This document shows positions 1,859-50,647 of a stretch of DNA of 64,000 nucleotides, one piece after another. The stretch comes from Eledone cirrhosa. Lineage: Eukaryota. Position 1 is the first letter of the stretch. Every line of letters begins with the position of its first letter. Under the pieces are notes generated by a model. That model was not told the DNA's origin. It saw only the letters and a list, made by a program, of their open reading frames with translations, and made no database searches. The DNA is taken from assembly GCA_964016885.1 (NCBI GenBank), contig OZ024742.1:37820001-37884000 (forward strand), written 5' to 3'. Position numbers and translations under genes: made by a program.

Positions 1859-2004
1859 ATGATACAGGTATTAATTATATAATGAGCACATTATACCACA
1901 TAATTTTCTCAAGATGTTTGTAATCTATATATTCTAGTATTTTCTATACAATTAAACTGATATTACAGAAATTAGGTCACATTCATAAATATATTTAATT
2001 GACA

Positions 2005-3165
2005 AAGAAAGCCTTCGACAGAGTCCCCCGCTCCATTATCTGGTGGGCTCTTAGAAAACTAGGCGTTGACGAATGGCTTGTGAGAGCTATACAAGCCATG
2101 TATAAAGAAACAGTCAGCAAGGTTAGAATTAACAACGAATATAGTGAAGAGTTTAGCGTAAAAGTTGGCGTCCATCAGGGCTCTGTTCTCAGCCCCCTAC
2201 TATTTATTATTGCCCTTCAGGCTATAACAGAGGAGTTCAAGACCGGCTGCCCATGGGAACTCCTATACGCAGACGACCTGACACTCATAGCGGAATCAAT
2301 GGCCGAGCTAGAGAAGAAATTCCAAACATGGAAGCACGGCCTAGAATCAAAAGGACTTAAAATTAACCTGGCTAAGATTAAAGTTCTAGTTTGTAGGAAA
2401 GAAAATAAGGCGGCGGTCCCTTCTGGGAAATGGTCGTGCTCGGTGTGTAGGAAAGGCGTAGGTAGAAACTCCATTTTATGTCCTAAATGCAAAGTATGGG
2501 TGCATAAAAGATGTAGTGGGATCACAGGTAAGCTAACTAAGAACATAGATTTTACATGTAGCCGGTGCTCTGGTGCAATAAGTAGCAGCAAGTGCCCACA
2601 AAATACTAGCTCTTTCAATTGCGCAGAGGGTTCTATAGAAATAGTGGAAAGCTTCCGTTACCTGGGCGATAAAATCAGCAGTGGGGGAGGGTGCTCTGAA
2701 AGTACAGTAGCTAGAGTCAGAACCGGTTGGAAAAAGTTCAGAGAGCTTATACCACTATTAGCTGCTAAAGGGTTCTCCCTAAAAATGAAAGGCAGGTTGT
2801 ACGATGCCTGCATACGAACAGCAATGTTGCATGGCAGTGAGACCTGGGCATTGTGTGCAGAGGATATACGCAGACTAGAGAGGAACGAAGCTTGCATGCT
2901 CCGCTGGATGTGTAACAGTAATATACGTGAACGGCAAAGCATAAACGAACTAAGAAAAAAATTAGAAATAAGAGGGATCAGATGTTGTTTACTCGAGAGA
3001 AGGCTACGTTGGTATGGACACGTGATGCGCATGAAAGTCGATAGCTGTATAACAAAGTGCAGGGCAATAAAGATAGACGGTAGCCACGGAATAGGCAGAC
3101 CTAGAAAAACCTGGGACGAGCTGATAGAACAAACGCAGAAGCATTTAATCTGACATTCCAATGAC
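2005..3165 (+). mobile_element. RTE-clade LINE family C fragment (RT, PHD-like finger, C-terminus), truncated at both ends
   Basis: The 384-aa ORF has KAFDRVPR, GVHQGSVLSPLLF, LYADD, FRYLG and RLRWYGHVMR. No tail is seen. Confidence 0.92.
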
Positions 3166-5113: not shown

Positions 5114-5385
5114 TCATGTAATGACATGTTGGGTGTTTGAGGAGGTGGTTACTCATGTAATGACAGGGACTATGTTGGGTGTTTGTGGGGTGGTTACCCA
5201 TGTAACAGGGATTATGTTGGGTGTTTGGAGGGTGGTTATCCATGTGAGGGTAGGGACAATGTTGGGTGTTTGAGGTGGTGGTTATTCATGTAATGACAGG
5301 GACTATGTTGGGTGTTTGGTGGTGGGGTTTACCCATGCAATGATAGGGATTATGTTGGGTGTTTGGGGGGTAGTTACCCATGTAA
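5114..5385. repeat. G-rich minisatellite, about 45-bp unit, about 6 copies
   Basis: Unit is approximately CATGTAATGACAGGGACTATGTTGGGTGTTTGGNGGTGGTTACC. Confidence 0.9.
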
Positions 5386-9843: not shown

Positions 9844-12192
9844 TAAATGATAAATTTAAAAAATGTAATCATTGAGAATTCATAGAAAATGGCAATGTGT
9901 CTAGTTCTCAAATAACATTTTAACTACTGTGAACCTGCATATTATGCAATCAATTGAGTCCCCAGCCACTCATGTTATTTAACTCATGTCCAGCATGAGA
10001 TTGCATTAGCAAGGCATTGAAAAGTTCAAAACAGTATTATGATTACATCACATGAAAAATTTATTTCTTTACTGCAATTTTTCACAACAATCTGTCCACT
10101 AATAAAGATACTTTGAATCTGAATTAACAAACCTGTTTTTAAACTGTTTTTAAGATGTTAAAAGTAAAAATCATGTATGTTCAAAACCCTTATATAAAAG
10201 TGCCTATGTACATTGATGTTTTTGGAAGAGACATAAAAACAAGCTTTCAATAAGTTGAGAAAACTCAAGAAAAGAAGAATGACAGTTGTAGGGGTTAATG
10301 TTTTCTTCCTTTCATTAGGTGATATGATTTTCATGTAGAATAGAACAGTCAGAGTTTTACGTTTCTGAATTTAAAAAGATATGTTAAAAACTGCACTATT
10401 TAATACTAGCATATGATGTAGGCTCACTATAATTAAATTATGAATATTATTATAAAGCCAAAAAGTATTTGGCAACTTTTGCATTTGATAACTCTTCAGT
10501 GTTTGTATGTTAGACCTTGAGTCAAATTCCAAAGTTCGTTGTTATTGTTAGATTGATTCTCTTTCACAAATTATACTGAAAAGGCACCTCTGTTGGTTTC
10601 ACTCCATTGACTTTGAAGTGAACTTCAATACCATGATGTATTTATCCCTGAGTGTTGTAAATTGCAAGGTAGAGAGTTGAAAATGTAGATTAGTAAGATC
10701 AAATCAGATCTTGCATTTATAGTACACCATTGGAGTTATAACTGGTTGCAGTGTATGGCTGACTTCTGTTCACGATGCTGTGAATTCACAAGTTGGAACT
10801 GAGTGAATGCTTACACAAGCAAGTAAAAGTGCTATCAAGCACAGTACATGACACTAACCTTCTAATAAACCAAAAAAACAATCTTATATTAATTTCCCAT
10901 TTGAAGCATTTTATTTACATATACTTAAGTAGGCTTTTGAAGCTAGACAGCCTATGCTTCATGTTTTCAAATTTCCTCTGAAATACACGTTTTTTGCTTT
11001 AACCATGGTAAATTTCTTTGCCCAGATGCCCTCCCTGATGCCAACCCATAATTTTCAGTATGATAGAGATTTAATTATGTTTTGACAGCAAAGCATAAAC
11101 ACATATAAACGACAGGCTTTCATAGTTGACATCTACCAAGTTCACTAATAAGTCATTTGTCAGTTCAAGGATATAACAGAAGAGACTTGTTCAAGATACC
11201 ATGCAGCACGACCAAACCTAGAACCACATGCTTTAGAAGTATACTTCTAAACCACACAGCATCATCATCTCATCATCACTGCTTTACATCAGCTTTTCCA
11301 TGCTTGGATAGGTTGAATATTTCACAACTTGTTACACTCAAATCCTTCTAATTTTGAGACTTTATACCTATGTATGAAATTTTGTCATGCCTCCATTAAA
11401 TAATTCATTAAATGTTACTAAGAACATCATTTCATTTCATTTTTAAATATTTTTTAAATGTATGGAAACCACAATGCCTAACAATAACAAAACTTCATCC
11501 TCATCAATGTTGCAGGATCCACCCAAGAAAATATATATTTATTCTAATGGGCAGGTTATTTCTGGAAAAAGCAAAGAACTTTATTTATATGACTTTTACA
11601 TTCCCCATGACCACCAACATCACAAACAAATTAAAACACTGAGAAAGCATTTGGCACTTTATCAATGTTTTTCTTTTGAGTAAACTTTAAATAAACAGAA
11701 AATGTTAACATTCTGAGTCAAACCTGGCACAAACGAAGAATAAAACTATAGCAGTGAGAGACTAATAAACTATACAAATGTGTAAAGATATATGTGTATT
11801 TATACATGAGTACACAGACAAATGTGTGTAGACAATTTGAAAAATGAAGTTTGTGTTATCTGAGTGCTAAATCTTATAAAGCCAATGAGTCATGTGTATA
11901 AGTCACTGCTTTGAGCAAGGTGCACTGCTCTGTTTACCTGAGCTACCCTATTGAAAACAGATGGCTCTACTTCATAATAAAGGAAATAATGGTCAAACAT
12001 ACAAAAGATCTGGTTAAGTATGGGATGTGGAATATTGTAAGTGATATCAAACTTCTGTAAATTAGTTATAATATATAAAATCACAGTAGCATCCTTGGCT
12101 AAATGTTGAGACAGAATGTCATTAACCCTTAATATTTATATTACTCTATATTTACAATTATATTTTCAAGGTAAAGGCTTTACCTCACATAA

Positions 12193-13251
12193 AGGACAGC
12201 ATTCCTCACCATATGAGATGTCATCTGGTGTACCACAAGGATCTGTTCTTGGCCCCCTTTTGTTTGTGGCATATATTAATGACATAGATGCCAACTTAAG
12301 GAATGCCACAGTACTAAAGTACGCAGACGACATCAAGCTGTACCTTGAGATAAAAAGGATAGATCCTGAACACTATAGATCTTGCTTGCAGTCTGACCTG
12401 GACACAATGCAACAATGGATCTCAGACTGGCAACTCAAGCTAGCTGTGGACAAGTGCACCACCATGCATTTTGGGAGTAAAAACCCAGCGTCCACATACT
12501 CCCTCCACAGCACTAATATCAAGAAGTCTTCCTGTGAACGTGACCTTGGCATTACGGTCAGCAGCGATTTGCGTTGGACGAGGCACGTCTCTAAAATTGT
12601 CAAGAGGGCCGAGGGTGTCTTAGCATCACTCAGCAAGACCTTTGTCAGCCGCTCTCCAGATATCTATTTAAGGCTGTATACAGCTATGGTGCGACCACAC
12701 TTAGAATTTGCATCACCAGTCTGGAACCCCGATCTTGCTCAGAACATTGACCGCCTGGAAACTGTTCAGAGACGTGCAACCAAGCGAATACCCTCCATCA
12801 GGCATCTACCATACTCTGAGCGCCTTGCTTCCCTGGGCATGGATTCATTGAAGCTCCGACGCCTGGCAACTGACTTGGTAAACACCCACAAAATTGTTAA
12901 CCATGTTGCCAACAACAACCCTGAGTACCTTTTTGATTTCCATGTGTCTAACACACGTGGACATGCCCACAAAGTAAGAAAACAGCACAGTTCCCATGAC
13001 TTTCGGAAACATTTTTTCACGCTCAGAGTTGCTGAAGCATGGAACAAACTACCTGCATCAGTTGTTAGGTGTCGAGACACTGCATCCTTTAAGGCCTCCA
13101 TGCTTCCCGAGATCCACCAACACTACAGCTAACACATATCACACATGTACTTCCCTGACATTTGTGTATTATTCTATGTACTATACATACACCTTTGACG
13201 AGTTGTAGTGCACCTGAGCACTTTACACAATAATTTCATTATTATAATTAT
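12193..13251 (+). mobile_element. 5'-truncated CR1-type LINE (RT and 3'UTR) with 9-bp target-site duplication
   Basis: ORF has SGVPQGSVLGPLLF, YADD, ERDLG, VRPHLEF, LETVQRRATK, TRGH and WNKLP. (ATT)-rich tail. TSD ctcacataa at 12184-12192 and 13252-13260. Inserted in a TTAA MITE. Confidence 0.92.
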
Positions 13252-15614: not shown

Positions 15615-18600
15615 ATCATCATCATCATCATCACTGTTTTACATCCGTTCTTCCACGCTAGCATGGGTTAGACGGGTTGTCCTGTTGTGGGCAGTGTCTG
15701 GTCGGCTGACCATGCCTTGCTCATACAGGAACTGATTTGGCTTGATTTCTACAGCTGGATGCCCTTCCTAACACCAACCTCATTTACAGTGAGTGCTGGG
15801 TGCTTTTTCGTGGCGCCTACACATCCACTTTACAGTGTGGGCTGGGTGCTTTTTTGCCGTGGCACCTCCACGACCACCTTGCGGTGGGGGGGTGGGGGGG
15901 CATATTGTCTATATGCTTCAGCTTGTACCCATGGGAGGTCGGGTACTCTGTATTACTGCGTGACGCCAGAGGTCACGGTCATGTGTCATTGCCTTTGAGA
16001 GGTGTAATTGGGTAAGGTCGGCTTTTATCACCTCATCTCAGGTCATCTTGGGTCTCCCCACTCCACGGTTTCCATCAACCTCTAGTGCTCTGCACCTTTT
16101 TATGCAGCTGTCATCCTTCATACGCATCACATGTCCATACCAGTGCAACCGCCTCTCCTGCACACAGCATTTGATTCCTCTTATGCTCAGTCTCTCTCTC
16201 AATTCATTTATGCTTTGTCGGTCACGTATATTACTATTACACATCCATCGGAGCATGCAGGCTTCGTTTCTCTCTAATCTACGTAAGTCTTCCACCTTCA
16301 GCGCCCAGGTCTCACTACCATGCAACATTGCTGTTCGGATACATGCATCAAACAGTCTGCCTTTCATTCTGAGGGAGAAGCCTTTTGCAGCTAGCAGTGG
16401 TAGTAGTTCCCTAAACTTCTTCCATCCCGTTCTTACCCTAGTTATTGTACTTTCTGAACACCCACCTCCGCTGCTAATTCGGTCACCTAGGTAGCAGAAG
16501 CTGTCTACTGTTTCTACAGAGCCCTCCCAGAGATTGGTGGTACTTGTTTCCTGTGGCTGTTTGTTGTCTCAGCACAGCTGCTGCATGTGAAGCCTATATT
16601 CTTAATTAAGCTTCCTGAGATCCCGCTACATCTCTTGTGTACCCATTGTTTGCATTTGGGGCAGAGAATGGAGTTCCTACCTACACCTTTCCTACATACT
16701 GAGCAAGGCCATTTCCCTGAGGGGATCTGGGTTCTGTTTTCTCGTCTACTTACAAGGACCTTAGTCTTTGTCAGGTTGACTTTGAGACCCTTTCTTTCTA
16801 GTCCCTGCTTCCAAGTTTGGAATTTCTTATCTAGTTCTACCATAGATTCAGCTATGAGTGCGAGGTCATCAGCATACAGGAGTTCCCATGGGCATCCGGT
16901 CTTAAACTCCTCCGTTATTGCCTGCAGGACTATGATGAATAGGAGGGGGCTAAGAACAGAGCCCTGGTGGAGCCCAACCTGTACGCTAAATTCCTCGCTA
17001 TACTCATTGCTAATCCTAACTTTGCTGACTGCTCCCCTATACATGGCTTGTACCGCTTTCACAAGCCATTCATCTACTCCTAGTTTTCTAAGAGCCCACC
17101 AGATTACAGCACGTGGAACTCTGTCAAAGGCTTTCTCAAGGTCGACAAATGCCAAGTAGAGTGGCTTACTTTTAGCTAGGTACTTTTCCTGTAACTGCCT
17201 CACAAGGAAGAGGGCATCAGTGGTGCCTCTTCCTGGTACAAACCCAAATTGTATCTCATCTAGTTTCACCCGGTCCCTAATCAACTGTACTATAACTCTT
17301 TCTGTTACTTTCATGACCTGGTCCATCAACTGTATACCTCTATAGTTTCCTCTATCTAGTGCATCGCCTTTACCTTTGTAGCAGTTGACAATGATGCTAC
17401 TGCACCAATCTTTTGGTATGACACCTTCTAGTATTACCTGGTTAACAATACGTGTGGTTATAGTGTGACCTACAGACCAGATGCCTTCAGCATCTCGGCA
17501 GCTATACCCGATTGACCGGTTGCCTTCCCCATCTTCATATCTTTGATTGCCTTACTTACTACGTTGCTGCTGACTTGTACTGCTGGCTCCTCTATAGGGT
17601 CTACTTGGGGTAGGGTCTCTTCTTCCCATGCATTCTCCTCATTTAGTAATCTATCATAATGACTCTTCCATGCATCTTTCTTCTCAGCACTTGTGAGGGC
17701 AAGCTCACCTTTATCATTCCGGATACACTTCTCTCCAATGACATCACAACTATCTCTGACACACTGCCTCGCAATCTTGAATACCTCCCGTTTCTGGTCC
17801 TCACGTTGCAAAACATGCTTGAATTTTCTATCCTCTGCTTCCCTCCTAGCTAAGTATACTTGTCGCCTAGCTTCCCTCTTGGTCTCTATGTAATGTACCC
17901 TGCTCCCCCCATTCTTCCATTCTTTCCATGCCTGTCTCTTGGCCTTAACTGCTTCATCTACCTTATTGTTCCACCACCAAGTCACTCTCCTCCTGCTTGA
18001 GGTTTTACTCCAGGCACAGACCTCATCCGTCGCCTCTAGTAAATTATTTTTTAGGAACTCCCAGTTCTCTTCTACATTAAATGTATCTATCTGTTCTTCT
18101 TTACTGTCGTAGGCGTTGAGTAAAATATCTTTAAATCTGTTACTGGTTGAGGGGACTTTCAGCTTCTAGATCTTTCTTCTCCAGGTTGGCCTCTGTTTCC
18201 AGGTTCGTTTAGTTCTGACCAAGAGGTCGCTGACAACTAAGCTATGTTGGGATGTACATTCCTCACTAGGGAAGGCTTTTGTGTTTACGACCGTCCATCT
18301 GTCATGTCCTCTGATGAGGATAAAATCTATCTGACTGGACTGCTCCCCTGATCTATAGATGATCAGGTGGTTGTTGGGTTTTTTAAAGTTTGTGTTACAT
18401 ATCGACATGTCATTGGCGTCGCAGAATTCTAGAAGTCTGAATCCTTCCTCATTTCTTGTGCCAACCCCATGGCCTCCATGTACTCTATTGAAGCCGTCGC
18501 AGTGTTTACCTACGTGTCCGTTAAAATCTCCTGCGAAGATTAGGAAGTCATTGTCGTCTGTTAGAGCAGTAGTGTGCATTAGGGACTCGTAAAACCTATC

Positions 18601-18832: not shown

Positions 18833-19792
18833 TCATCATCATCATTTTACGTCCGCTTTTCCCTGCTTGCAAGGGTGGGACGGGTCTTATTCAGCACAGC
18901 ATCTCTCCACTTGTCACGGTCCCTCGTCATCTCCACCGTGAGCTTCAATGATCTGAGGTCTGTTCTCACCACCTCCGCCCATGTTTTTCGTGGTCTACCT
19001 CTACCACGTCTTCCTTCAACTGGCATTTCCTGGCACTTCTTCACCCATCGGTTATCCTCCATGCGCATCACATGTCCATACCACCTCAGTCTCCTCTCCC
19101 GTACACTACATTCTATCCCTCTCAGACACAGTTTCTCTCTCAACCCATTTATGCTGGGTCGTTCACGCACATTTACACTGCACATCCAACGGAGCATGCT
19201 TGCCTCATTTCTCTCCAGCCGTCGCATATCCTCTGCAGTTGCTGCCCATGTCTCACTACCATGCAGCATCGCGCTCCTCACACAGGCATCATACAACCGG
19301 CCTTTCGTATGCATGGAGAAACCCTTCTTCGTCAACAGAGGAAGCAGCTCCCTAAACTTCTTCCAACCCGTCCTTATTCTAGATACTATGGCCTCGGAAC
19401 ACCCTCCTCCCATGCTAATCTGATCTCCTAGGTACCGGAAGCTATCCACCACTTCTATAGCGCCCTCTCGCATTTGAAAAATGTGTCTTTCAGTGCGACT
19501 TCTACTGTCTAATTTCCCTGTACATCTACTGCATACATATTTCTCCCTACCTGTTAGTTTGTCTGCTATCCCGCTACATCTCTTGTGTACCCAGGACCTG
19601 CATTGTGTGCATTTTATAGAATTTATGCCAGTTCCTTTTCTGCATATCGAACATGGCCATTTCCCTGATGGAATCAGGGTTTTGTCCTCTTTTCTACTCA
19701 TCAACACTTTTGTCTTAGCTAGATTTACTCTCAGTCCTCTTGCTTCCAACTGCTGTTTCCATAGCCGGAATTTATTCTCTAGCTCCTCTACT
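18833..19792 (-). mobile_element. RTE family B, 5'-truncated young copy inserted in a (TA)n tract
   Basis: Uninterrupted 300-aa ORF, near-identical to 27315-28265. The ORF stop lies immediately before the (ATG)n tail. Confidence 0.95.
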
Positions 19793-20935
19793 ATATATAT
19801 CTATATATATATCAACCAGGTAGTGAAGAATCAACATGGTAAACCTTCTGGTCGATATATCACCAAATTACATCACTAAAATTTATACAGATCAGAGCTA
19901 TCTGATGAAATCATATCTGAAGGTTTAGAATTATGTAAAAGATACCATGAAAATATGTGTAGCAGCTATTACAAAATAAATAAAATGTGATGAAGTATAA
20001 CCTTATTGCCTTCTACCTCATATATGTGTTTGTGTGTGCATTACAAGTTTACTGTTTCATCATTAAGCCATCCTCTATATTATAGTATTTTCATTTGCAC
20101 TCTATGTAGCTAAAATAAAGGATGAGAGAAGTTCAATGCCCTGCAAAAGGCATACTGCCAATAATAGGATGGATATCAACTCTGTAACTCTTTAGTCTAG
20201 ATACTGATATCACCAGTCATCTATAGAAACTCCTCTTAAAACTGTCATATATGAAGCCTGTTTTGTTTAATTTTCTAAATAGTAATATGAGCTTCAACAA
20301 CATCCTACAATAAGTGTGTTAAGGCTATTTTCCTTGTTAAAGCTGGGGTTAGCCTGCAGGGGAGGGGAACATGACAAGCATCTCCATTTTGCTTCTGCAC
20401 GTCCACCTCCACAACCCTTGGTTAATTTCCTCCTCCATTTTTAGCCACGCTTTTATTGGTGTGCGCCCCCCCCCCCCCCCCCGTTCCTATACTTCCTTCA
20501 ATATTCATTTTCGTCACTTCTCTCACCTAGTCACCATCCAGCCATCTTATACCATTTCTCTTCACAACATTCATCATTAGCTCTAAAAAACTGAATAGAT
20601 TTAATAAAGTGTATAAATTGATAAATAATATAATTAAATTTTGTATTTCTAAAAAAATAAAAAAAATAAAAAACCTTGACTTAAAAGACCAACAAAAAAG
20701 GAAGTGGGGTATAGAACTCCTCAATAACAAAAATTATTGAGGGCAACTTTTGTAAATAGATGAATGTATATATTGAAACAGTTAATAAGTGAAAACTGAA
20801 TAGATAGATAAATATAATAGCAGTGTTATAAATCAACAGATGGAATAACAGAGTAACACAAGTGATATCCATTAAAAGATAAAACTTCTTCCTTCTCAAG
20901 AACAATTACTATTAATAATCTGTATATCAACTCAC

Positions 20936-24235: not shown

Positions 24236-25686
24236 ACATAAAGAGAAATGAAGACAAAATAAACAACTCATCATTTAACCATTTCTAATTATAAAAACAC
24301 TGCCTATGATATTCAAATAATTTTTTAAATAATTAAGAAATTGGAGGTATTTAGTAATATAATTAACTTTCTCTTTTAGTTATTGTTTGGAACATAACTT
24401 AGCAAATTCTTATACATTCATTTCATTTCACATACATTAACAACATTTGAAAACAAAGAATTTTGCACTGTAGAACTAGGGGCAGTTTTGAGTGGGTTAT
24501 GGTTAAATTTTCATGTTTCAAAGCATTTAAATTTTACTCAGAGGATTTGCAACTTTTCTAAAATGGGCTTTTTCCCTTTCATTACCATATTTCCAGTGGA
24601 GGACATGGCCTATGATTTTCCTCATTTTGAAAAAAAATCAGAAATTTGAAGACATTAAGTTGATGTTTGGAAAATATTTCAACAAATGTTCTTCCATAAA
24701 ATTATGATGGGAAATTTTTGAATACTTTAAAATATTTATATTTATCTTAAAATATGTCATCATAATTTTATGTAGAAGCCTTTGTTAAGTCATATTTAAT
24801 ATTAAGGAAGTTAGTTATATTACTAAATCACTTAAAATTCTTGATTATTTAAAAAATCATTTGAAAACCCAAGTGCTGATTTGAATAACTTTAAAAGTAG
24901 AAAGTTAAATTCATATTCTATCACCAGCTCATTGTGAAGATATATGAGTCTATGGTAATGTGTGTATGAGAGAGAGAGTAGGGTGCTGAAGAGCTTTGCA
25001 ATTAAGATAGAATCTTTGAAAAAAAGAAACAGAACAAATAAAAAGGCATTTAAAATACCCAAACAGTTAAATTATAAATAAAAGTTTAACTACATTTTGT
25101 TTTGCTTAAGAACCATTTATATTTTATGATGAACAAAAATATTTGGCAAAAATACAACTTAATAAATGAAAGTAATGATACTGCAATTCTAAAAGTTTAA
25201 ATATTATTAGATACTCAAAGGAGATTTAACACTTAACATCCTGTAATGATCTAGCAGAAAATATTTAAAATTAGTTTGTTGATTCAAATGCTTATAAATA
25301 TCTTTGCCATGGAAAAACTGTAGCGAACATTTGCAATATTAAACTTGGGTTCAAATCCTGCCATGGTTAACTTTACCTCTTATCCTTCTGTGGTTGATAC
25401 AATAAAATACCAGTTAAGTATCAAGGATGATAGCTAGCCTTGTGCCTAAATTAGAGATCAATTTTAGACTTCAAATTTTTGTGATGTAGAATGTCTTGTG
25501 GTTTTGTGTAGTACATGACAAGAAGAATTAAGAGAAAATAATTAATCAAAAAAAAATAAATCTAATCAATAAATAAATGAATAACCCATAGACATGCATG
25601 AATTCCTCACAAATTGCTGACATGCAAACAGCAAGCCAGAGTGGCATAAATAACATAAATTCAAAAATTCACAGTATTGTGAACCG

Positions 25687-28289
25687 GTTACGGTTCAAGA
25701 AATGAAGAAGGAGTGAGACTTCTTGAATTTTGTGATGCGAGTACATTGACTATTTGCAACACAAACTTCCAGAAACCTGCCAATCACCTAATAACCTACA
25801 AATCTGGTGAGCACATAAGCCAGATTGACTTCCTGCTAGTTAGGCAGCGGGACAGGCAGATAGTGTCTAATACCAAGGCATACCCTGGGGAAGAATGTAC
25901 CCCACAGCATAGGTTAGTTGTTAGTGATATCTCAGTAAGCAAGAGATGGAATGAGACATATAGGAAGGTGTGGAGAAGAAAGGTCTGGAAGCTAAAAGAC
26001 CTTTCACTAAAATACAAATTTAGGAAAGCCCTTCAAGATGTATATGACGAAAAAAAAGAAGACGATTTAGAGACGTATGACATAGATAATAACAGGAAGT
26101 TCTTACGTGACAACTTGCTGCAGGCTACTGATGAAACCTGTGGCTGGAGCAGATCTCCAACCAGACAGAGAGTGACCTGGTGGTGGAACAGCACAGTAGA
26201 TAAGGCTATTAGAGACAAAAGACTAGCATGGAAGGCTTGGAAAAAGGGTGGGAGTAGGGAAGAATATACAGCCACTAAGAGAGAAGCTAGATGTCAGATG
26301 TACTTAGCACGCAGGGAGGCAGAGAGTAGAAGGTTTGCCAATGTTCTGCGACGGGAAGATCGGAGGCGTGTGGTGTTCCACATTGCAAGGCAGTGTGTCA
26401 ATGCAAATCAGGATGTTGTTGGAGATAAATGTGTCCGGGATGATGCCGGTGTACTTAGTGTCACGAATGATCAGAAAAAGGAGGCCTGGAAATGTCATTA
26501 TGAGAGACTGATGAATGTGGAGAACGAATGGGAGAGAGAGAAATTACCCTTGGTAGATCCGACAGAGGGACCAGCTATTGAGATTGACGAATATAGGGTC
26601 CAAGAGGCGATTAGGGAAATGAAAAATAGTAAGGCGGCCGGACCATCGGGAATAGTTGCTGAGATGCTGAAGGCATCAGGGGACCTAGGCACTAAACTGG
26701 TTGCACGCATCATCAATCAGGCTATATATGGTGGTGTCATACCCAAAGACTGGTGCAGCAGTATTCTCATAAATTGCTACAAAGGTAAAGGGGATGCTTT
26801 GGAGAGGAGCAATTATAGGGGTATAAAACTGATAGATCAGGTTATGAAAGTGGCAGAAAGGATTTTAGCACAACTAATTAGAGAAAGGGTCAAACTAGAT
26901 GAAATGCAGTTTGGTTTTGTGCCTGGGAAGAGTACAACAGATGCCCTCTTCTTGGTGAGACAAATGCAAGAGAGGTTCTTAGAGAAGAATAAGTCACTAT
27001 ACTTAGCCTTTGTTGACCTAGAGAAGGCCTTTGATAGGGTACCCCGATCTGTCATCTGGTGGTCCCTAAGGAAGCTAGGTGTTGAGGAATGGCTTGTGAG
27101 GACAGTGCAAACTTTGTACAGAGGTACTCTCAGTAAAGTCAGGGTAGGAATGGAGTTTAGTGAGGAATTCCAGATAAAAGTAGGAGTACATCAGGGTTCG
27201 GTCCTCAGCCCGCTCTTGTTCATTATAGTCCTCCAAGCCATAACAGAGGAGTTTAAGACTGGCTGTCCATGGGAACTTCTCTATGCTGATGATCTGGTTC
27301 TTATAGCAGAATCAGTAGAGGAGATGGAGAATAAATTCTGGCTATGGAAACAGCAGTTGGAAGCAAGAGGACTGAGAGTGAATCTAGCTAAGACAAAAGT
27401 GTTGATGAGTAGAAAAGAGGACAAAACCCTGATTCCGTCAGGGAAATGGCCATGTTCGATATGCAGAAAAGGAACTGGCATAAATTCTATAAAATGCACA
27501 CAATGCAGATCCTGGGTATACAAGAGATGTAGCGGGATAGCAGACAAACTAACAGGTAGGGAGAAATATGTATGCAGTAGATGTACAGGGAAATTAGACA
27601 GTAGAAGTCGCACTGATAGACACATTTTTCAAATGCAAGAGGGCGCCATAGAAGTGGTGGATAGCTTCCGGTACTTAGGAGATCAGATTAGCATGGGAGG
27701 AGGGTGTTCTGGGGCCATACTATCTAGAATAAGGACGGGTTGGAAGAAGTTTAGGGAGCTGCTTCCTCTGTTGACGAAGAAGGGTTTCTCCCTGCGTACG
27801 AAAGGCCGGTTGTATGATGCCTGTGTGAGGAGCGCGATGCTGCATGGTAGCGAGACATGGGCAGCAACTGCAGAGGATATGCGACGGCTGGAGAGAAATG
27901 AGGCAAGCATGCTCCGTTGGATGTGCAGTGTAAATGTGCGTGAACGACTCAGCATAAATGTGTTGAGAGAGAAACTGTGTCTGAGAGGGATAGAATGTAG
28001 TGTACGGGAGAGGAGACTGAGGTGGTATGGACATGTGATGCGCATGGAGGATGACCGATGGGTGAAGAAGTGCCAGGAAATGCCAGTTGAAGGAAGACGT
28101 GGTAGAAGTAGACCACGAAAAACATGGGCGAGGTGGTGAGAACAGACCTCAGATCATTGAAGCTCACGGTGGAGATGACGAGGGACCGTGACGAGTGGAG
28201 AGATGCTGTGCTGAATAAGACCCGTCCCACCCTTGCAAGCAGGGAAAAGCGGACGTAAAATGATGATGATGATGATGATGATGATGATG
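25687..28289 (+). mobile_element. RTE-clade LINE family B, 2.6 kb, 5'-truncated, with an 808-aa ORF (end of endonuclease, RT, PHD-like finger)
   Basis: ORF 25713..28139 has SQIDFLL, QHRLVV, NYRGIKL, QFGF, DLEKAFD, QGSVLSP, YADD and YLG. A 1-bp deletion near the C-terminus is seen relative to the 18833-19792 copy. (ATG)n tail at 28260-28289. Confidence 0.96.
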
Positions 28290-30806: not shown

Positions 30807-31035
30807 ACTGGATATATAACTGTTTTATGGAGTAGCCACTGGTTAAACTATTTTACTGTGCAGTCATTGGATATAACTGTTTTTCAGGGTAGTCACAGGT
30901 TATAACTGTTTTACAGGGTAGTTGCTAGATATAACTGTTTTACAGAGTAGTCACTGAGTATAATTGCTATACTGTGTAGCCACTGGATATAACTGTTTTA
31001 CAAGGCAGTCACTGAATATAACTGTTTTACAGGGT
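30807..31035. repeat. Minisatellite, about 29-bp unit, about 8 copies
   Basis: Unit is approximately CACTGGATATAACTGTTTTACAGGGTAGT. Confidence 0.9.
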
Positions 31036-33766
31036 GTGTACAGTTCGCAAAGAAAAATGGTATTCTGCAGTGATGAAAGAAAACATAGAATACTGTTTAT
31101 TTTTCTTTTGTGAGAAAACAGCATCTTTTTTAGCATCTGTATGAACACCTGTTGTCTTTAACTTCATTGTTAATAGTGATAGATATAGGTGAGAGTATGC
31201 AGCGTTATCCTACTTACACTTTTCAGTTTTTCTTGGAAGCACAGCAGGGGAGTGGGAAGAGGAAAGTGTTTTATAGCGTTTACTCCCTCCCATGCTCAAC
31301 CCACCACTAGTTCCTAAAACCCATTTTCATAACAAAATCTGTTGAAATGGTGAGAGAGGGGGCAAGAGCAAGAAGAGCGAGAAAATGGGAGCAAGAAGAG
31401 CGAGAAAATGAGAGCAATAAAACAAGTCAGAAGATTTCAATCTTACATAAGATTGAAAGAAAAAGTATTATTAAGTCAGAGAAAAACAGTTGGCATGTGC
31501 GTGTGTATTTGTAGGGAAAATTTAAAATTAAAATGTTCAAATTATAAGAATTAGTTGGAAATATTTTCAAGGGAATGCATAAATAACACTAATGACAATG
31601 TAATAAGAAAAAAATAAAAATAAAAACTACTGTTTCAATGTAAAATATTCACTCCAGATATTTTACATAGAATTTGAAGTTAGTGAAAATCAGCAAAATA
31701 TTGAATTCGAATATAAGCTGACCCTTATCACCAATTTTTTTTTTGTCACGTATTTCTCGGCTTATATACAAATATATCTCCAAATATAGTTGATCTTGTG
31801 CCGAAAGTCTTATGTACTCATAGGGTGCTAATGATCCGGTTCAAAATGGAAGAGAAAAGCACAATCAATGGGGAAATGGAAGTGCTTTGTAACCAGCAGT
31901 GTATGGGGACATATGATAGTCTGGTTGATCCAAGTATAATATTGTCTAATGTTGTCATGAATGCAATAGAGACAATATAAAAATATCTCAGATACAGATG
32001 TGTGTGAGAGAGAGTCAGACAGAGAGAGAATTATCACATGCCCACTCCTTAGTCTGTCCCCCTCTTTATTTATTTCTGTGTCATTCACTCAAGAGAACAC
32101 AATTATACCAGTGCTATTTTTATAACTATCCTACTAGAAGAAATCACACACACACAAACACAAACACAAACAACACACTTTATCTTTTGAAATAAGAAAT
32201 TCTAGAAATAACCAATTCTAGAAACATTTCTGGAGGTCATACAGAGTTCACATTGAGCAAAGAAAAAGATGAAAATTTATTTTCTTATTGCTTTGCAATA
32301 TTTTTGATATTCTATGTTGCCTATCCCTCCTTAATGTATAAAAACAAAAATAACTGAGTAACAAATACAACAAATATAGAGAGAAGGAGTAGGGAACTGT
32401 TAATGCTCTCCAAATTAAACTCCATCTTGCTTTCCACAATGATATTCAAATTTGTGTGTCATGTTTCCATCTTGATCTTGATCTTTTAATCTCTTTCTTT
32501 AAAAAGGTTTCTTTTCTTATCTTTTTTTCACATTTATATCTATACGACCTGTCCCCCCCCCCACCACCACCACCATCTTAAATAAGGAAAGGACACACTG
32601 GATAATCTACTGTCCTATACACATAGGCCTGCTTTGTAAAGCAACAAGATAGTTAAAATCTATATAATCTATTTTCCCTAAATCAATATTTCCCCTTTGT
32701 ATAAAGGTGGTAAATTAGCAGTCATTAAAGCATTGGATTAAAATGCCTTGTGGTATTTGTTGCAGCCCTCTGCACTTTGAATTCAAATCTTGCTGAGGTC
32801 AGCTTCCCCTTTCATCATATCAAGATTTCTATTATCAATCTTAGGTGGTGGATTTTCATGGAATTGCTAGAATGTTGAACATGATGTTTTGTAATATCTG
32901 TTCTGGTTTTGTAGATTACAGTTCAAATCTCACATCCTGTTACAAGAAAAAAAGTGAGATGATAGGACTAAGGCCCCTATCATTAAAATACCCAAGAAAG
33001 TTCCAATGAAACAGCATTTCATAGATTTATTACAATTTTATAGGAGGCTAGAGTAATATATATAGGTGTGAGCCATAACAGCAATAGAAACAAAGAAAAG
33101 AAAAAGAGCTGATTGTCAGATCAGATCAAGGAAACACTGTTTATATTGTTTTTTTCATGGCTATGTCTGCCTGTAGGTTGGAATTCCTGGTAGATAGAAG
33201 CAGAATGTTAACAAAAATAAATCTTATACATTTTTATCTTAGATTTTCTCTTTAATTGTACACCTTGCACTGCATATAAATACAGTAAAACATATATAAT
33301 ATCTTCTATGTCATGGTATAAACATTTTTCTTTTTATATTAGTCATTTTTTCTTCAGTAGTTATTGTAACCCAGTTAACTAACCTAGAAACTTAGCTTCA
33401 CTTATATGTGTCTCATTGTTGTTTGTTTATTTTTTCTTGACATCTTGCCAAAATCCGTGACATACTAAATTAAACCAAAAAGTACTTTGGTGTGTGTGTG
33501 TGTGTGCACACATGCGTGCTCATCATTTACATCCTCTTTTCCATGCTGATGTGGGTTAGACAGATCATTGCAGACCCAGTCAGAATTTATCAGAACTAAT
33601 GTCCTTTTTGCTCAATACATTCCATTTTAGAGAAAAAAAGAAAAAAAAGAACAAGTGAAAAACTAGAAACACCAGAGACTGCTATATAAACGAGGAAGTT
33701 AGGAAGACACAACTTGGACAACCTGGATATGTAAGAGGCCCAAAGAGAATTAGATTAAGCAGCTAC

Positions 33767-48510: not shown

Positions 48511-49140
48511 GGCACAGTTTGTTGCTACAGCAAGTTTCAGTTCCAGTAGAAATACTATTGCCTTTTGTGTAAATTCTTCGTCCACACTTACTCTAGAAAT
48601 ATAACTGTTTCAACACAAAATTTTACATCAAGAATATTGCAAAACAAATACAAAAATGAAGCACTGTAGAGTAGATGTATTAAACAACTAACTTTCAGAT
48701 AAATCAAAAGGGAAGGGAATTATAAGATATAAAAAGGCATATATAATAACAGCAGTATCAAGTTTAATCAACAACTTAAATGTAATTGGAACCATAAATT
48801 AAAGATAATGAATTCATTACAAGGATATTATTTAGCTCACAAAAGTATTTTATTTCATAAACTATCAGATGTGAATGTAGTAATTTTCAGTTATTTTCCT
48901 AGTTCATTCTGATGGTATGTTCCAGAATATTAAATTAAAGGAGTTTGAAACTATATTTCGAAGACCAATCCTCTATCATGTAAAATCTGAACACCATATA
49001 GTATAATGATTCAAATTTGGCTGCTAGAAATACAGAAGATATTGATAAATTTAACTACAAAATAAGCAAAACTCATGCTATTTCAGTTGTTTTTTATTCA
49101 ATTTGGATTGCCTCGGAAACATAACCTTATTATGTAACAA

Positions 49141-49214
49141 GCTGTCTGACAATGTCGCGACACTGGCACACAGAACAGTGTGGCCACTGGCGTCATTGAA
49201 ATATATATCACAGC
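49141..49214 (+). ncRNA. Type I hammerhead ribozyme motif with G8-to-A core mutation (CTGACAA), probably inactive
   Basis: Copy of 50417-50490 in the upstream direct repeat, with CTGACAA in place of CTGACGA. Confidence 0.55.
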
Positions 49215-50416
49215 ATTATTATTAAAAGACTTGAACATCGGAAACTACTTCGCTTTTCCTTATTCGATATTTACTCCGTCACTCCTATGTGGAATAAGTA
49301 TGTTGAGTGCTTGAATTGAATTGCATCAATGTTTACCCTAAGAATTTAGCTCCAATTAGTTGAGCGCTCTATAATGTAATCGATATGGTGGAGAAGAGAG
49401 GAACCAACCACGAGCTACACCCGGAAATTCCCGCTACCATGGGGATGGAAACCCCTGACACTGGACGGACATAATAATAATTTTCGGCAGGATAAATACG
49501 CGGAAACAAAAACAAAGATAAACCCCTATTTTCCTGCACCAAATCGCATTTGAACAGAAGCCCCCTCAATTAAATCTATACATGGACAAATTGACAATCA
49601 TATGGATCATTTTGCATATATGTACTCTATGTGTTTTTGCATTTATTCATTATTGGTTCTTTTATTTTGTGTACTTTATATCATTTTTTGGGGGGTTTGT
49701 TCCATGTGATGGAAATTATGACTATGTACCCAATTGACTATTGCCTTTCATACTGTAGTTTACCCTCCGTTCTACTGTACAGTACTATCGTTCAGTATGT
49801 GGATAGTGTAACTGTGACATTAGTGCCCCTTTCAGAACTTCTTACTTAAACATCTCTCTGCATATTATTTACTCATTTCAATCTATATATTTTTTTACTC
49901 ACCTCACTTGAACATTTTTTTAATTTCTAATTGTTAAATTTTTTGTATTTTTTAATTTTTTAATTTATAATTTCTGATATTTGATTTAGGATTTTCGATT
50001 TTAAATTTTTATTTCTAACTCTCACTCATAACTTACAATGTGAAACCATGATACCTAGAATTAAGTATATTTTCTCTTAGGGGTTGATGGTCAGTTGTAC
50101 TGTCCATGCTTGGTGAGAGGTAGTATTGGGACCTGGCTTTCGGCTGACTGCCACAGACGGGATGGGTAGCAGTAAACTATGGTACAGGCCTGAATGGGTC
50201 ATTGTTTGGCTGAGAGGGGGAACTGACTAAGCGAATTTCGTTGAAATCTGCGGTAGCTAATGGTCAACTTCCTCCGGTCCTGCGCCTGCGCAGACCGGTG
50301 GGGGTGAATTGGTACTCACAGGGGAACGGATGAAGAACCCTAAAGCACACACTTCGTCCGTTCCCATGTCAATTCAATTTGGATTGCCTCGGAAACATAA
50401 CCTTATTATGTAACAA

Positions 50417-50490
50417 GCTGTCTGACGATGTCGCGACACTGTCACACAGAACAGTGTGGCCACTGTCGTCATTGAAATATATATCACAGC
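50417..50490 (+). ncRNA. Type I hammerhead ribozyme motif, core intact
   Basis: GCTGT-CTGACGA-[long stem II]-GAAA-TATATA-TC^ACAGC. Helix I is GCTGT/ACAGC, the CUGANGA and GAAA boxes are present, the cleavage triplet is AUC, and stem III is minimal and palindromic. The base of stem II pairs irregularly. Confidence 0.68.
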
Positions 50491-50544
50491 ATTATTATTA
50501 AAAAACTTGAACATCGGAAACTACTTCGCTTTTCCTTATTCTAT

Positions 50545-50647
<103 letters not shown>

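Follow-up and report, generated by a model that had tools for sequence, protein, structure and literature searches.

A non-coding family of 1.3-kb repeats with a type I hammerhead motif and Penelope-like insertion anatomy in Eledone cirrhosa

The window analysed here, a 64,000-nt stretch of the Eledone cirrhosa genome (assembly GCA_964016885.1, contig OZ024742.1, positions 37,820,001 to 37,884,000 of the forward strand), contains an insertion at 49096..50541 on the plus strand that begins and ends with a 170-bp direct repeat (49096..49265 and 50372..50541, both +). The repeats align on a 1276-nt diagonal with exactly four differences (49151 A/G, 49166 G/T, 49190 G/T and 49228 G/A), at the same coordinates as in the preliminary description made from the letters of the window, and identity between them ceases at both edges. 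Measured from cut site to cut site of the hammerhead motifs that they carry, a single repeat unit covers 49210..50485 (+; 1276 nt here) and is non-coding, with a longest stop-free frame of 84 aa and a longest ATG ORF of 51 aa, in line with the earlier remark that the interior has no sizeable ORF. The interior was also said to be richer in GC and CpG than its flanks, which is correct overall (GC 0.38 vs 0.32/0.29; CpG observed/expected 0.64 vs 0.19/0.22) but unevenly so, as GC is 0.28 in 49561-50060 and 0.51 in 50061-50371. Within the unit, the signal of structure is most significant in GC-rich hairpins directly upstream of the downstream hammerhead (50260..50409, +; local z -4.0). The insertion lies in a target microsatellite, TATA leading into (GA)n (50542..50645, +), and no target-site duplication was discernible around 49096..50541. 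An acceptor-like site near 50080, which might hint at an intron, sits within a stretch that varies in the family. The repeats surrounding the insertion appear to be similar to those of cephalopods.

Each repeat includes a type I hammerhead motif laid out as a 5-bp stem I, CUGANGA, a 45-nt stem II, GAAA, a palindromic stem III and, ahead of the predicted cut, UC. In the upstream motif (49141..49214, +) stem I is at 49141-45, the core box at 49146-52, the GAAA box at 49198 and C17 at 49209, after which the cut is predicted; in the downstream motif (50417..50490, +) the corresponding positions are 50417-21, 50422-28, 50474 (50474-77) and 50485. The core, GAAA box and C17 were thus located in both repeats, as had been described. 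CUGANGA, GAAA, UH and stems I-III in type I order are all present, with the downstream core intact and the upstream one carrying a G8 to A change at 49151. This G, which lies within a CpG, is kept in 133/138 family copies, and its loss here would represent CpG decay. The mutation had been taken as a sign that the locus may now cleave only once. The substitution itself was confirmed; however, in a double-hammerhead fold, where the topology in PMC4209133 implies that each core cuts its partner's site, it is cleavage at 50485 that the upstream G8A would abolish, with 49209 still open to cleavage, unless the motif works as a monomer. An Rfam scan returned no hammerhead match at E<=5, which may be due to the 45-nt stem II.

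The insertion belongs to a repeat family. A search of the 3.0-Gb genome with the interior gave 2,820 candidates, of which 40 were scored and 30 loci taken (87-91% by BLAST, self-match excluded). A pattern with stems I and III and both core boxes fixed and stem II left free (the exact-core pattern) found 1,556 matches genome-wide and 0 for the reversed control, so that the motif is not due to chance and the element is not single-copy. Mean pairwise identity among 27 long copies was 94%, and the family unit measures 1297-1321 nt, the 1276 nt of the studied copy being explained by two private deletions of 13 nt and 29 nt. Contigs from one sequencing sample also cover the flank and the family, an observation that has no bearing on expression or copy number. 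This family, with its unusually long unit, is real, well-supported, apparently undescribed and of a known kind. A literature search found no description of it, within a scope that stopped short of Repbase, Dfam and the family-listing supplements of a preprint (bioRxiv 10.64898/2026.07.22.740005) and of PMC8557442, which may bear on novelty; the part of an octopus repeat annotation that was consulted (PMC13282606) contains no occurrence of 'ribozyme' or 'non-autonomous'.

In copies of the family the 3' end is fixed at one of two points, 56 or ~132 nt beyond the predicted cut (equivalent to 49265 and 49341/2 in the window). Between these ends lies an optional 'tail' of 76-77 nt (49266..49342, +) with an ACTCCG motif at 49273-49278, 7 nt after end 1, a feature common to the element and autonomous Hydra-type elements of the same genome. 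Of 142 tail sites, 23 run on into the next unit and 119 are terminal, the latter comprising end 2 with (TA)n (56 sites), end 1 with (TA)n (40), end 1 with (TC)n (6) and other or unclear cases (17); (TA)n therefore directly follows the 3' end in 96/119 terminal sites. Telomere priming, raised by a single CCCTAA at end 2, was rejected as relatives differ there and the targets are (TA)n. The 5' ends are scattered along the whole unit, indicating variable 5' truncation, inverted 5' pieces are frequent, and three long copies (L023, L030, L051) start at an inversion junction one base beyond end 2. Outside tandems, none of the 5' starts falls exactly at the cut site, and 4/38 unit-length segments start at +6 to +13. 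Head-to-tail tandems reach five full units, and in the tandem loci L158, L026/L027, L159 and L167 each unit has a type I hammerhead. Direct units within one locus differ by 3.4%, compared with 7.1% to the median other copy, and share few rare variants.

Given this Penelope-like element (PLE) anatomy, the locus reads as a 5'-truncated partial tandem of 1.13 units that ends at end 1 in a TA/GA microsatellite. Its left edge, 49096, is a truncation point and no family boundary, and its right edge is the first family 3' end, at which the downstream repeat terminates 56 nt beyond its cut site; a repeat length of 170 bp is for this reason peculiar to the copy. The upstream repeat is a truncated partial tandem, the 3' part of a 5'-truncated upstream unit (pseudo-LTR), and no LTR; other copies extend further upstream or stop elsewhere. 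The picture of an element bracketed by direct repeats thus gives way to that of a partial tandem.

Three further groups of older relatives occur in the genome at loci L171-L200, L301-L320 and L211-L230, namely family B, families with a 48-51-nt stem II and family C. Family B is 75-80% identical to the studied family (family A). An older sister family has patches of interior sequence in common with it and showed no upstream ORF in 30 loci, and the copies of family C examined are ~220-330 nt long, often starting at one 5' position beside (TA)n. The tail of the studied family matched that of B strongly (z 26) and that of C weakly (z 2.9). A longer C-like hammerhead element is present on G000:C2:231646858-231728031 (L201-L210) in about ten dispersed-tandem copies that have flanks in common and lie within ~80 kb, suggesting local segmental amplification.

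Coding PLEs with (TA)n at their ends are also numerous in the genome; each has a hammerhead of its own, and in the autonomous PLEs the hammerhead is surrounded by 0.6-1.4 kb of non-coding sequence. One of them, H1, is an intact autonomous Hydra-type PLE with an ORF of 785 aa (782-786 aa across copies) in a ~3.2-kb unit (L261, with the ORF on the minus strand; L263:2512-4866; L264). Its endonuclease part has at least 150 scored copies at >=92% identity, and its ORF was not recognised by Pfam. H1 has a hammerhead with an 85-nt stem II, a first 3' end ~54-55 nt past the cut and ACTCCG 7 nt later; a pattern of this layout gave 3,070 matches genome-wide, those listed being of the type of a second family, D. 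In family D the ORF lies between tandem hammerheads in a ~4.1-kb unit that ends in (TA)n (e.g. L295:3530-7627; loci L265-L300), and the ORFs of the copies examined are broken by frameshifts and stops. Both D and H1 contain the Hydra motifs RWK, DKT, a CxCx5C linker, CxxC and CxH, those of D being read from separate broken copies, and both show the features given for Hydra-clade PLEs in the part of PMC8557442 used for matching, including a C-terminal GIY-YIG, (TA)n targets and a hammerhead. Other abundant coding PLE families (L091, L092, L096, L100, L102; L061-L088) carry the U3-A8 variant of the hammerhead core that parts of PMC4209133 describe for Schistosoma, and several of these have long intact ORFs (844-938 aa).

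The family hammerhead is homologous to that of D (z 6.9, partly by search design, as a similar core and stem III were demanded). Its tail was not significantly similar to that of D (z -0.7; 312/400 shuffles) or H1 (z 0.3). H1 shares its layout and the ACTCCG motif with the family and shows no sequence similarity to it, and an origin as a deletion derivative of D or H1 was rejected, the interior being without similarity to full D or H1. No PLE protein remnant was found in the unit by tblastn with 37 PLE frames, the only matches under E 0.1 being a 12-aa overlap of a query frame with a family copy. A contiguous upstream ORF was seen in 0/192 hammerhead instances; in 3/192 an ORF was present within 1.7 kb, separated by a TA run. 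The preliminary description had suggested a search for an autonomous partner encoding RT plus GIY-YIG and bearing the same repeat; no autonomous element with the family's termini was found among the 50 loci inspected of 150 scored Pfam GIY-YIG loci, and those inspected carry other hammerheads. Patterns with a shorter or longer stem II recovered relatives and variants with deletions; among their loci, those that were read had no upstream ORF. As judged from these comparisons, D is the nearest coding relative sampled and no proven partner.

Conservation of the hammerhead was assessed on 104 unique sequences out of 138 (80/110 from the family and 24/28 from the older sister family). The structure paired 83.2% of cells, compared with 10-59% in slid registers, and two-sided changes occurred in 43 cells vs 17.2+/-9.8 in shuffles (0/500), a control that ignores relatedness. 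This agrees with the covariation in stem II that had been proposed as a check, and the CUGANGA and GAAA boxes are likewise conserved among copies, so that neither a single-copy element nor a non-conserved motif, both named earlier as grounds for refutation, was encountered. Across families A-D, of which the C and D hammerhead sets include a few false matches, stem II pairs 2 and 5-10 vary between G-C, A-U and G·U, and pair 4 is a C·C mismatch in 122/122 sequences of A, 25/27 of B, 29/33 of C and 48/50 of D. Stem III forms a palindrome in families A, C and D, and in B it remains self-complementary via G·U; in the coding family D, two positions of stem I show covariation, these changes being outside the demands of the search pattern. 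Older relatives carry a stem II of 46-51 nt, from which it follows that the lineage kept the ribozyme fold through several waves. Judged by these patterns of substitution, the hammerhead motif is real, of type I and structurally conserved.

Weak activity, or activity conditional on help from a dimer or a protein, is predicted for it. The first pair of stem II, normally G10.1-C11.1, is U·U in 122/122 copies of A and G·U or G-C in the related families. The minimum-energy fold sequesters the core in 54/60 sequences of family A as against 1/26 in the coding family D, and the predicted cost of opening the core has a median of 3.8 kcal/mol in A and reaches 7.2 in the downstream motif of the studied copy. 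The ribozyme is probably not required for each insertion. According to PMC11167929 on another PLE, hammerhead mutants insert normally in vitro, cleavage being dispensable, and the ribozyme cuts only with the PLE protein.

The locus is probably one copy of a 1.3-kb non-coding hammerhead-motif family with PLE insertion anatomy, and a Hydra-clade Penelope RT/GIY-YIG protein would likely do the copying in trans. The features of a non-autonomous PLE that are present comprise 5' truncation, partial tandems forming pseudo-LTRs, inverted 5' copies, two 3' ends, an AT-rich or microsatellite target and no coding capacity, and much the same layout (truncated 5' ends, pseudo-LTRs made up of partial tandems, copies in inverted form, an optional tail and insertion into (TA)n) is given for PLEs in sections of PMC8557442. 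A tandem locus would be read through in transcription, and a Hydra-type PLE protein would bind the RNA near the tail and nick (TA)n DNA. Reverse transcription would then have one of two internal starts, lying 56 and ~132 nt downstream from the ribozyme site, much as the PLE tail arises from two internal RT start sites according to PMC11167929 (in part). Copying would cross the intact ribozyme site before a random stop or inversion, yielding partial tandems such as that at 49096..50541. Since copies end beyond the cut at these two positions and not at the cut itself, the usual template is not a linear monomer released by cleavage; the observed 3' ends are compatible with uncleaved tandem RNA as well as with a ligated circle. 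Some templates may be cleaved, in view of the four segments beginning 6-13 nt past the cut.

The choice of template is what separates this explanation from a true large retrozyme, for which the PLE enzyme would be the same and efficient cuts at successive hammerheads would release a ~1.3-kb monomer, ligated to a circle that would be the main template, with the PLE RT rolling round it. Such a model has been proposed (PMC4209133 and PMC7229834, each in part) and would fit the perfect head-to-tail junctions with the ribozyme site intact, the multi-unit arrays and the retention of ribozyme structure through several successive families. The units of locus L026, which differ at 2/1297 nt compared with 47 to the nearest other unit compared, also speak for it; however, in the five-unit array (L158:1202-7762) units 1-3 differ by 5.7-6.6%, and units 4-5 are near-copies of units 2-3 (2 and 13 differences), which suggests a three-unit insertion that was enlarged later by duplication at the DNA level. 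The circular monomer fold is 62% paired (z -2.9 on 22 shuffles), but its signal is local to the 3' 220 nt and comes mostly from the hairpins beside the hammerhead. The predicted sequestration of the core, the invariant U·U pair and the predominance of dispersed sub-unit fragments argue further against efficient excision, as do 8/9 Xenopus retrozyme dimers that were without cleavage in vitro (bioRxiv 10.64898/2026.07.22.740005, in part), and a large retrozyme in this strict sense is considered unlikely.

It is far less probable that the unit is merely the UTR or pseudo-LTR of an autonomous PLE missed so far, with ORF-less tandems as a minor by-product. The lengths of non-coding sequence around the hammerheads of the autonomous PLEs in this genome would accommodate this, and inspection covered no more than a small part of the 1,556 sites, but complete ORF-less unit-to-unit junctions exist at many independent loci, a contiguous ORF is missing from every instance surveyed, and the older sister family, with its patches of common interior, is equally without an upstream ORF in 30 loci. 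A non-autonomous LTR element (TRIM/LARD or a plant-type LTR retrozyme) with 170-bp LTRs is the most improbable reading. In the studied copy alone, two 170-bp repeats do flank an interior; across copies the repeat length differs, 5' ends are ragged and inversions are present, no TG..CA ends or short target duplication were seen, and the hammerhead is of type I and not type III. The absence of fixed LTRs in the copy anatomy already contradicts an LTR element or plant LTR retrozyme.

The preferred reading, a non-autonomous PLE with a hammerhead that represents a large variant of animal retrozymes, accords in part with the earlier proposal of a candidate large retrozyme or non-autonomous PLE. Animal retrozymes are ~170-400 nt in the part of PMC7229834 consulted and 51-972 bp in that of bioRxiv 10.64898/2026.07.22.740005, where the tandem search ended at period 1000. 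Like animal non-LTR retrozymes, the element is non-coding, with one type I hammerhead per unit, head-to-tail arrays and a GC content under 45%; both are related to PLE pseudo-LTRs, and PLE mobilisation has been proposed. It differs in its 1.3-kb unit, above the 150-450 bp range and the 972 bp maximum, as had been anticipated, in copies that are mostly dispersed, truncated or inverted, and in a long stem II with a U·U base and a C·C mismatch, and it is known here from DNA alone. In sum of these structural features, the element appears to work like a retrozyme and has the structure of a non-autonomous PLE, with a unit beyond the size of described retrozymes.

Non-autonomous PLEs with pseudo-LTRs, e.g. 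MRC1, are already known (PMC8557442, in part). According to the same portion of that source, MRC1 and other non-autonomous Chlamys PLEs resemble the element in being ORF-less, with pseudo-LTRs, insertions of multiple copies head to tail, and microsatellite targets, and they too can be mistaken for LTR elements. Most of them, however, are without hammerheads and target (CA)n or (C)n, whereas the element has a hammerhead and (TA)n; their 3' end also resembles that of an autonomous family, whereas the element's matches to the nearest coding family are confined to the hammerhead and short motifs. Hydra-clade PLEs (PMC8557442, in part; here D and H1) share (TA)n targets and a hammerhead in the pseudo-LTR with the element. 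In H1, ACTCCG follows 7 nt after a first 3' end that lies ~55 nt past the cut, and D has a homologous hammerhead, but these PLEs encode RT and GIY-YIG, which the element does not, and the tails are not significantly similar. The 76-77-nt tail is longer than the 30-40 nt described for PLEs in PMC8557442. In Poseidon PAc of Anolis (PMC11167929, in part), two RT start sites downstream of the hammerhead likewise produce an optional tail, targets are AT-rich and the ribozyme site is retained in copies, but PAc is autonomous, belongs to the Poseidon clade, has a hammerhead overlapping the ORF start and was tested biochemically, whereas the element is known from sequence alone.

While the kind of element itself is already known, and retrozymes have already been argued to be non-autonomous PLE derivatives (bioRxiv 10.64898/2026.07.22.740005, in part), PLE mobilisation of animal retrozymes and the need for a circle have so far been argued mainly from co-occurrence and pseudo-LTR similarity. 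The family shows a PLE footprint directly on an ORF-less hammerhead repeat with >1,500 motif copies. As the genome also contains a graded series of relatives of greater age, together with coding elements of Hydra type, of which one has its ORF intact, the questions of trans-mobilisation and of the circle become testable with the existing in vitro PLE assay. Surveys restricted to periods <=1 kb miss larger units of this type.

The family is also a hot spot for insertion of a ~187-nt SINE-like repeat, presumably of tRNA origin, which occurs in sense orientation 5 nt beyond the predicted cut at 17/117 unselected family sites, compared with 0/27 sister-family sites that are without the ATTAT target; ARAGORN found no tRNA gene in 4 loci. 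The target is an ATT-repeat site, empty in the studied copy (49215..49223, +; second site 50491-50499). The exact junction had 360 matches genome-wide (examples at L005, L010, L012, L018, L112-L140 and L321-L360), so that the site was hit at least 360 times; elsewhere the SINE was found at ~49 places vs 6,354 ATTAT sites in all sequence examined, a far lower rate. Varied 5' junctions, the stacked SINEs carried by some sites and ordinary target duplications indicate that the insertions are independent. A chimeric SINE mobilised by a PLE was rejected on the basis of the varied 5' junctions and of 38/40 unselected junctions with element or stacked-SINE sequence upstream (30 and 2, respectively, by script, and 6 more by eye), and an RNA-level template switch because the target duplications are like those of SINEs at other places (median 14 vs 13 nt; absent in 13/55 vs 12/49).

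A bolder proposal, which is rather unlikely, would make the unit the largest animal retrozyme yet described. The 1.3-kb non-coding circular RNA would be cut out by a protein-switched hammerhead, the conserved C·C mismatch serving as the site of its recognition or activation by a Hydra-clade Penelope protein that would then roll round the circle from an internal start, and a nick by the same protein just past the ribozyme site would prime hundreds of SINE insertions.

The window also includes LINE-type reverse transcriptase fragments at 25683-28139, 1999-3153, 16514-17551, 18847-19800 and 12110-13132, most of them with a C-terminal PHD-like finger, and LINE-type elements of this sort are a possible driver of the SINE. 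Short tandem arrays with periods of 29 nt and ~45 nt are located at 30817-31048 and 5136-5385, respectively.
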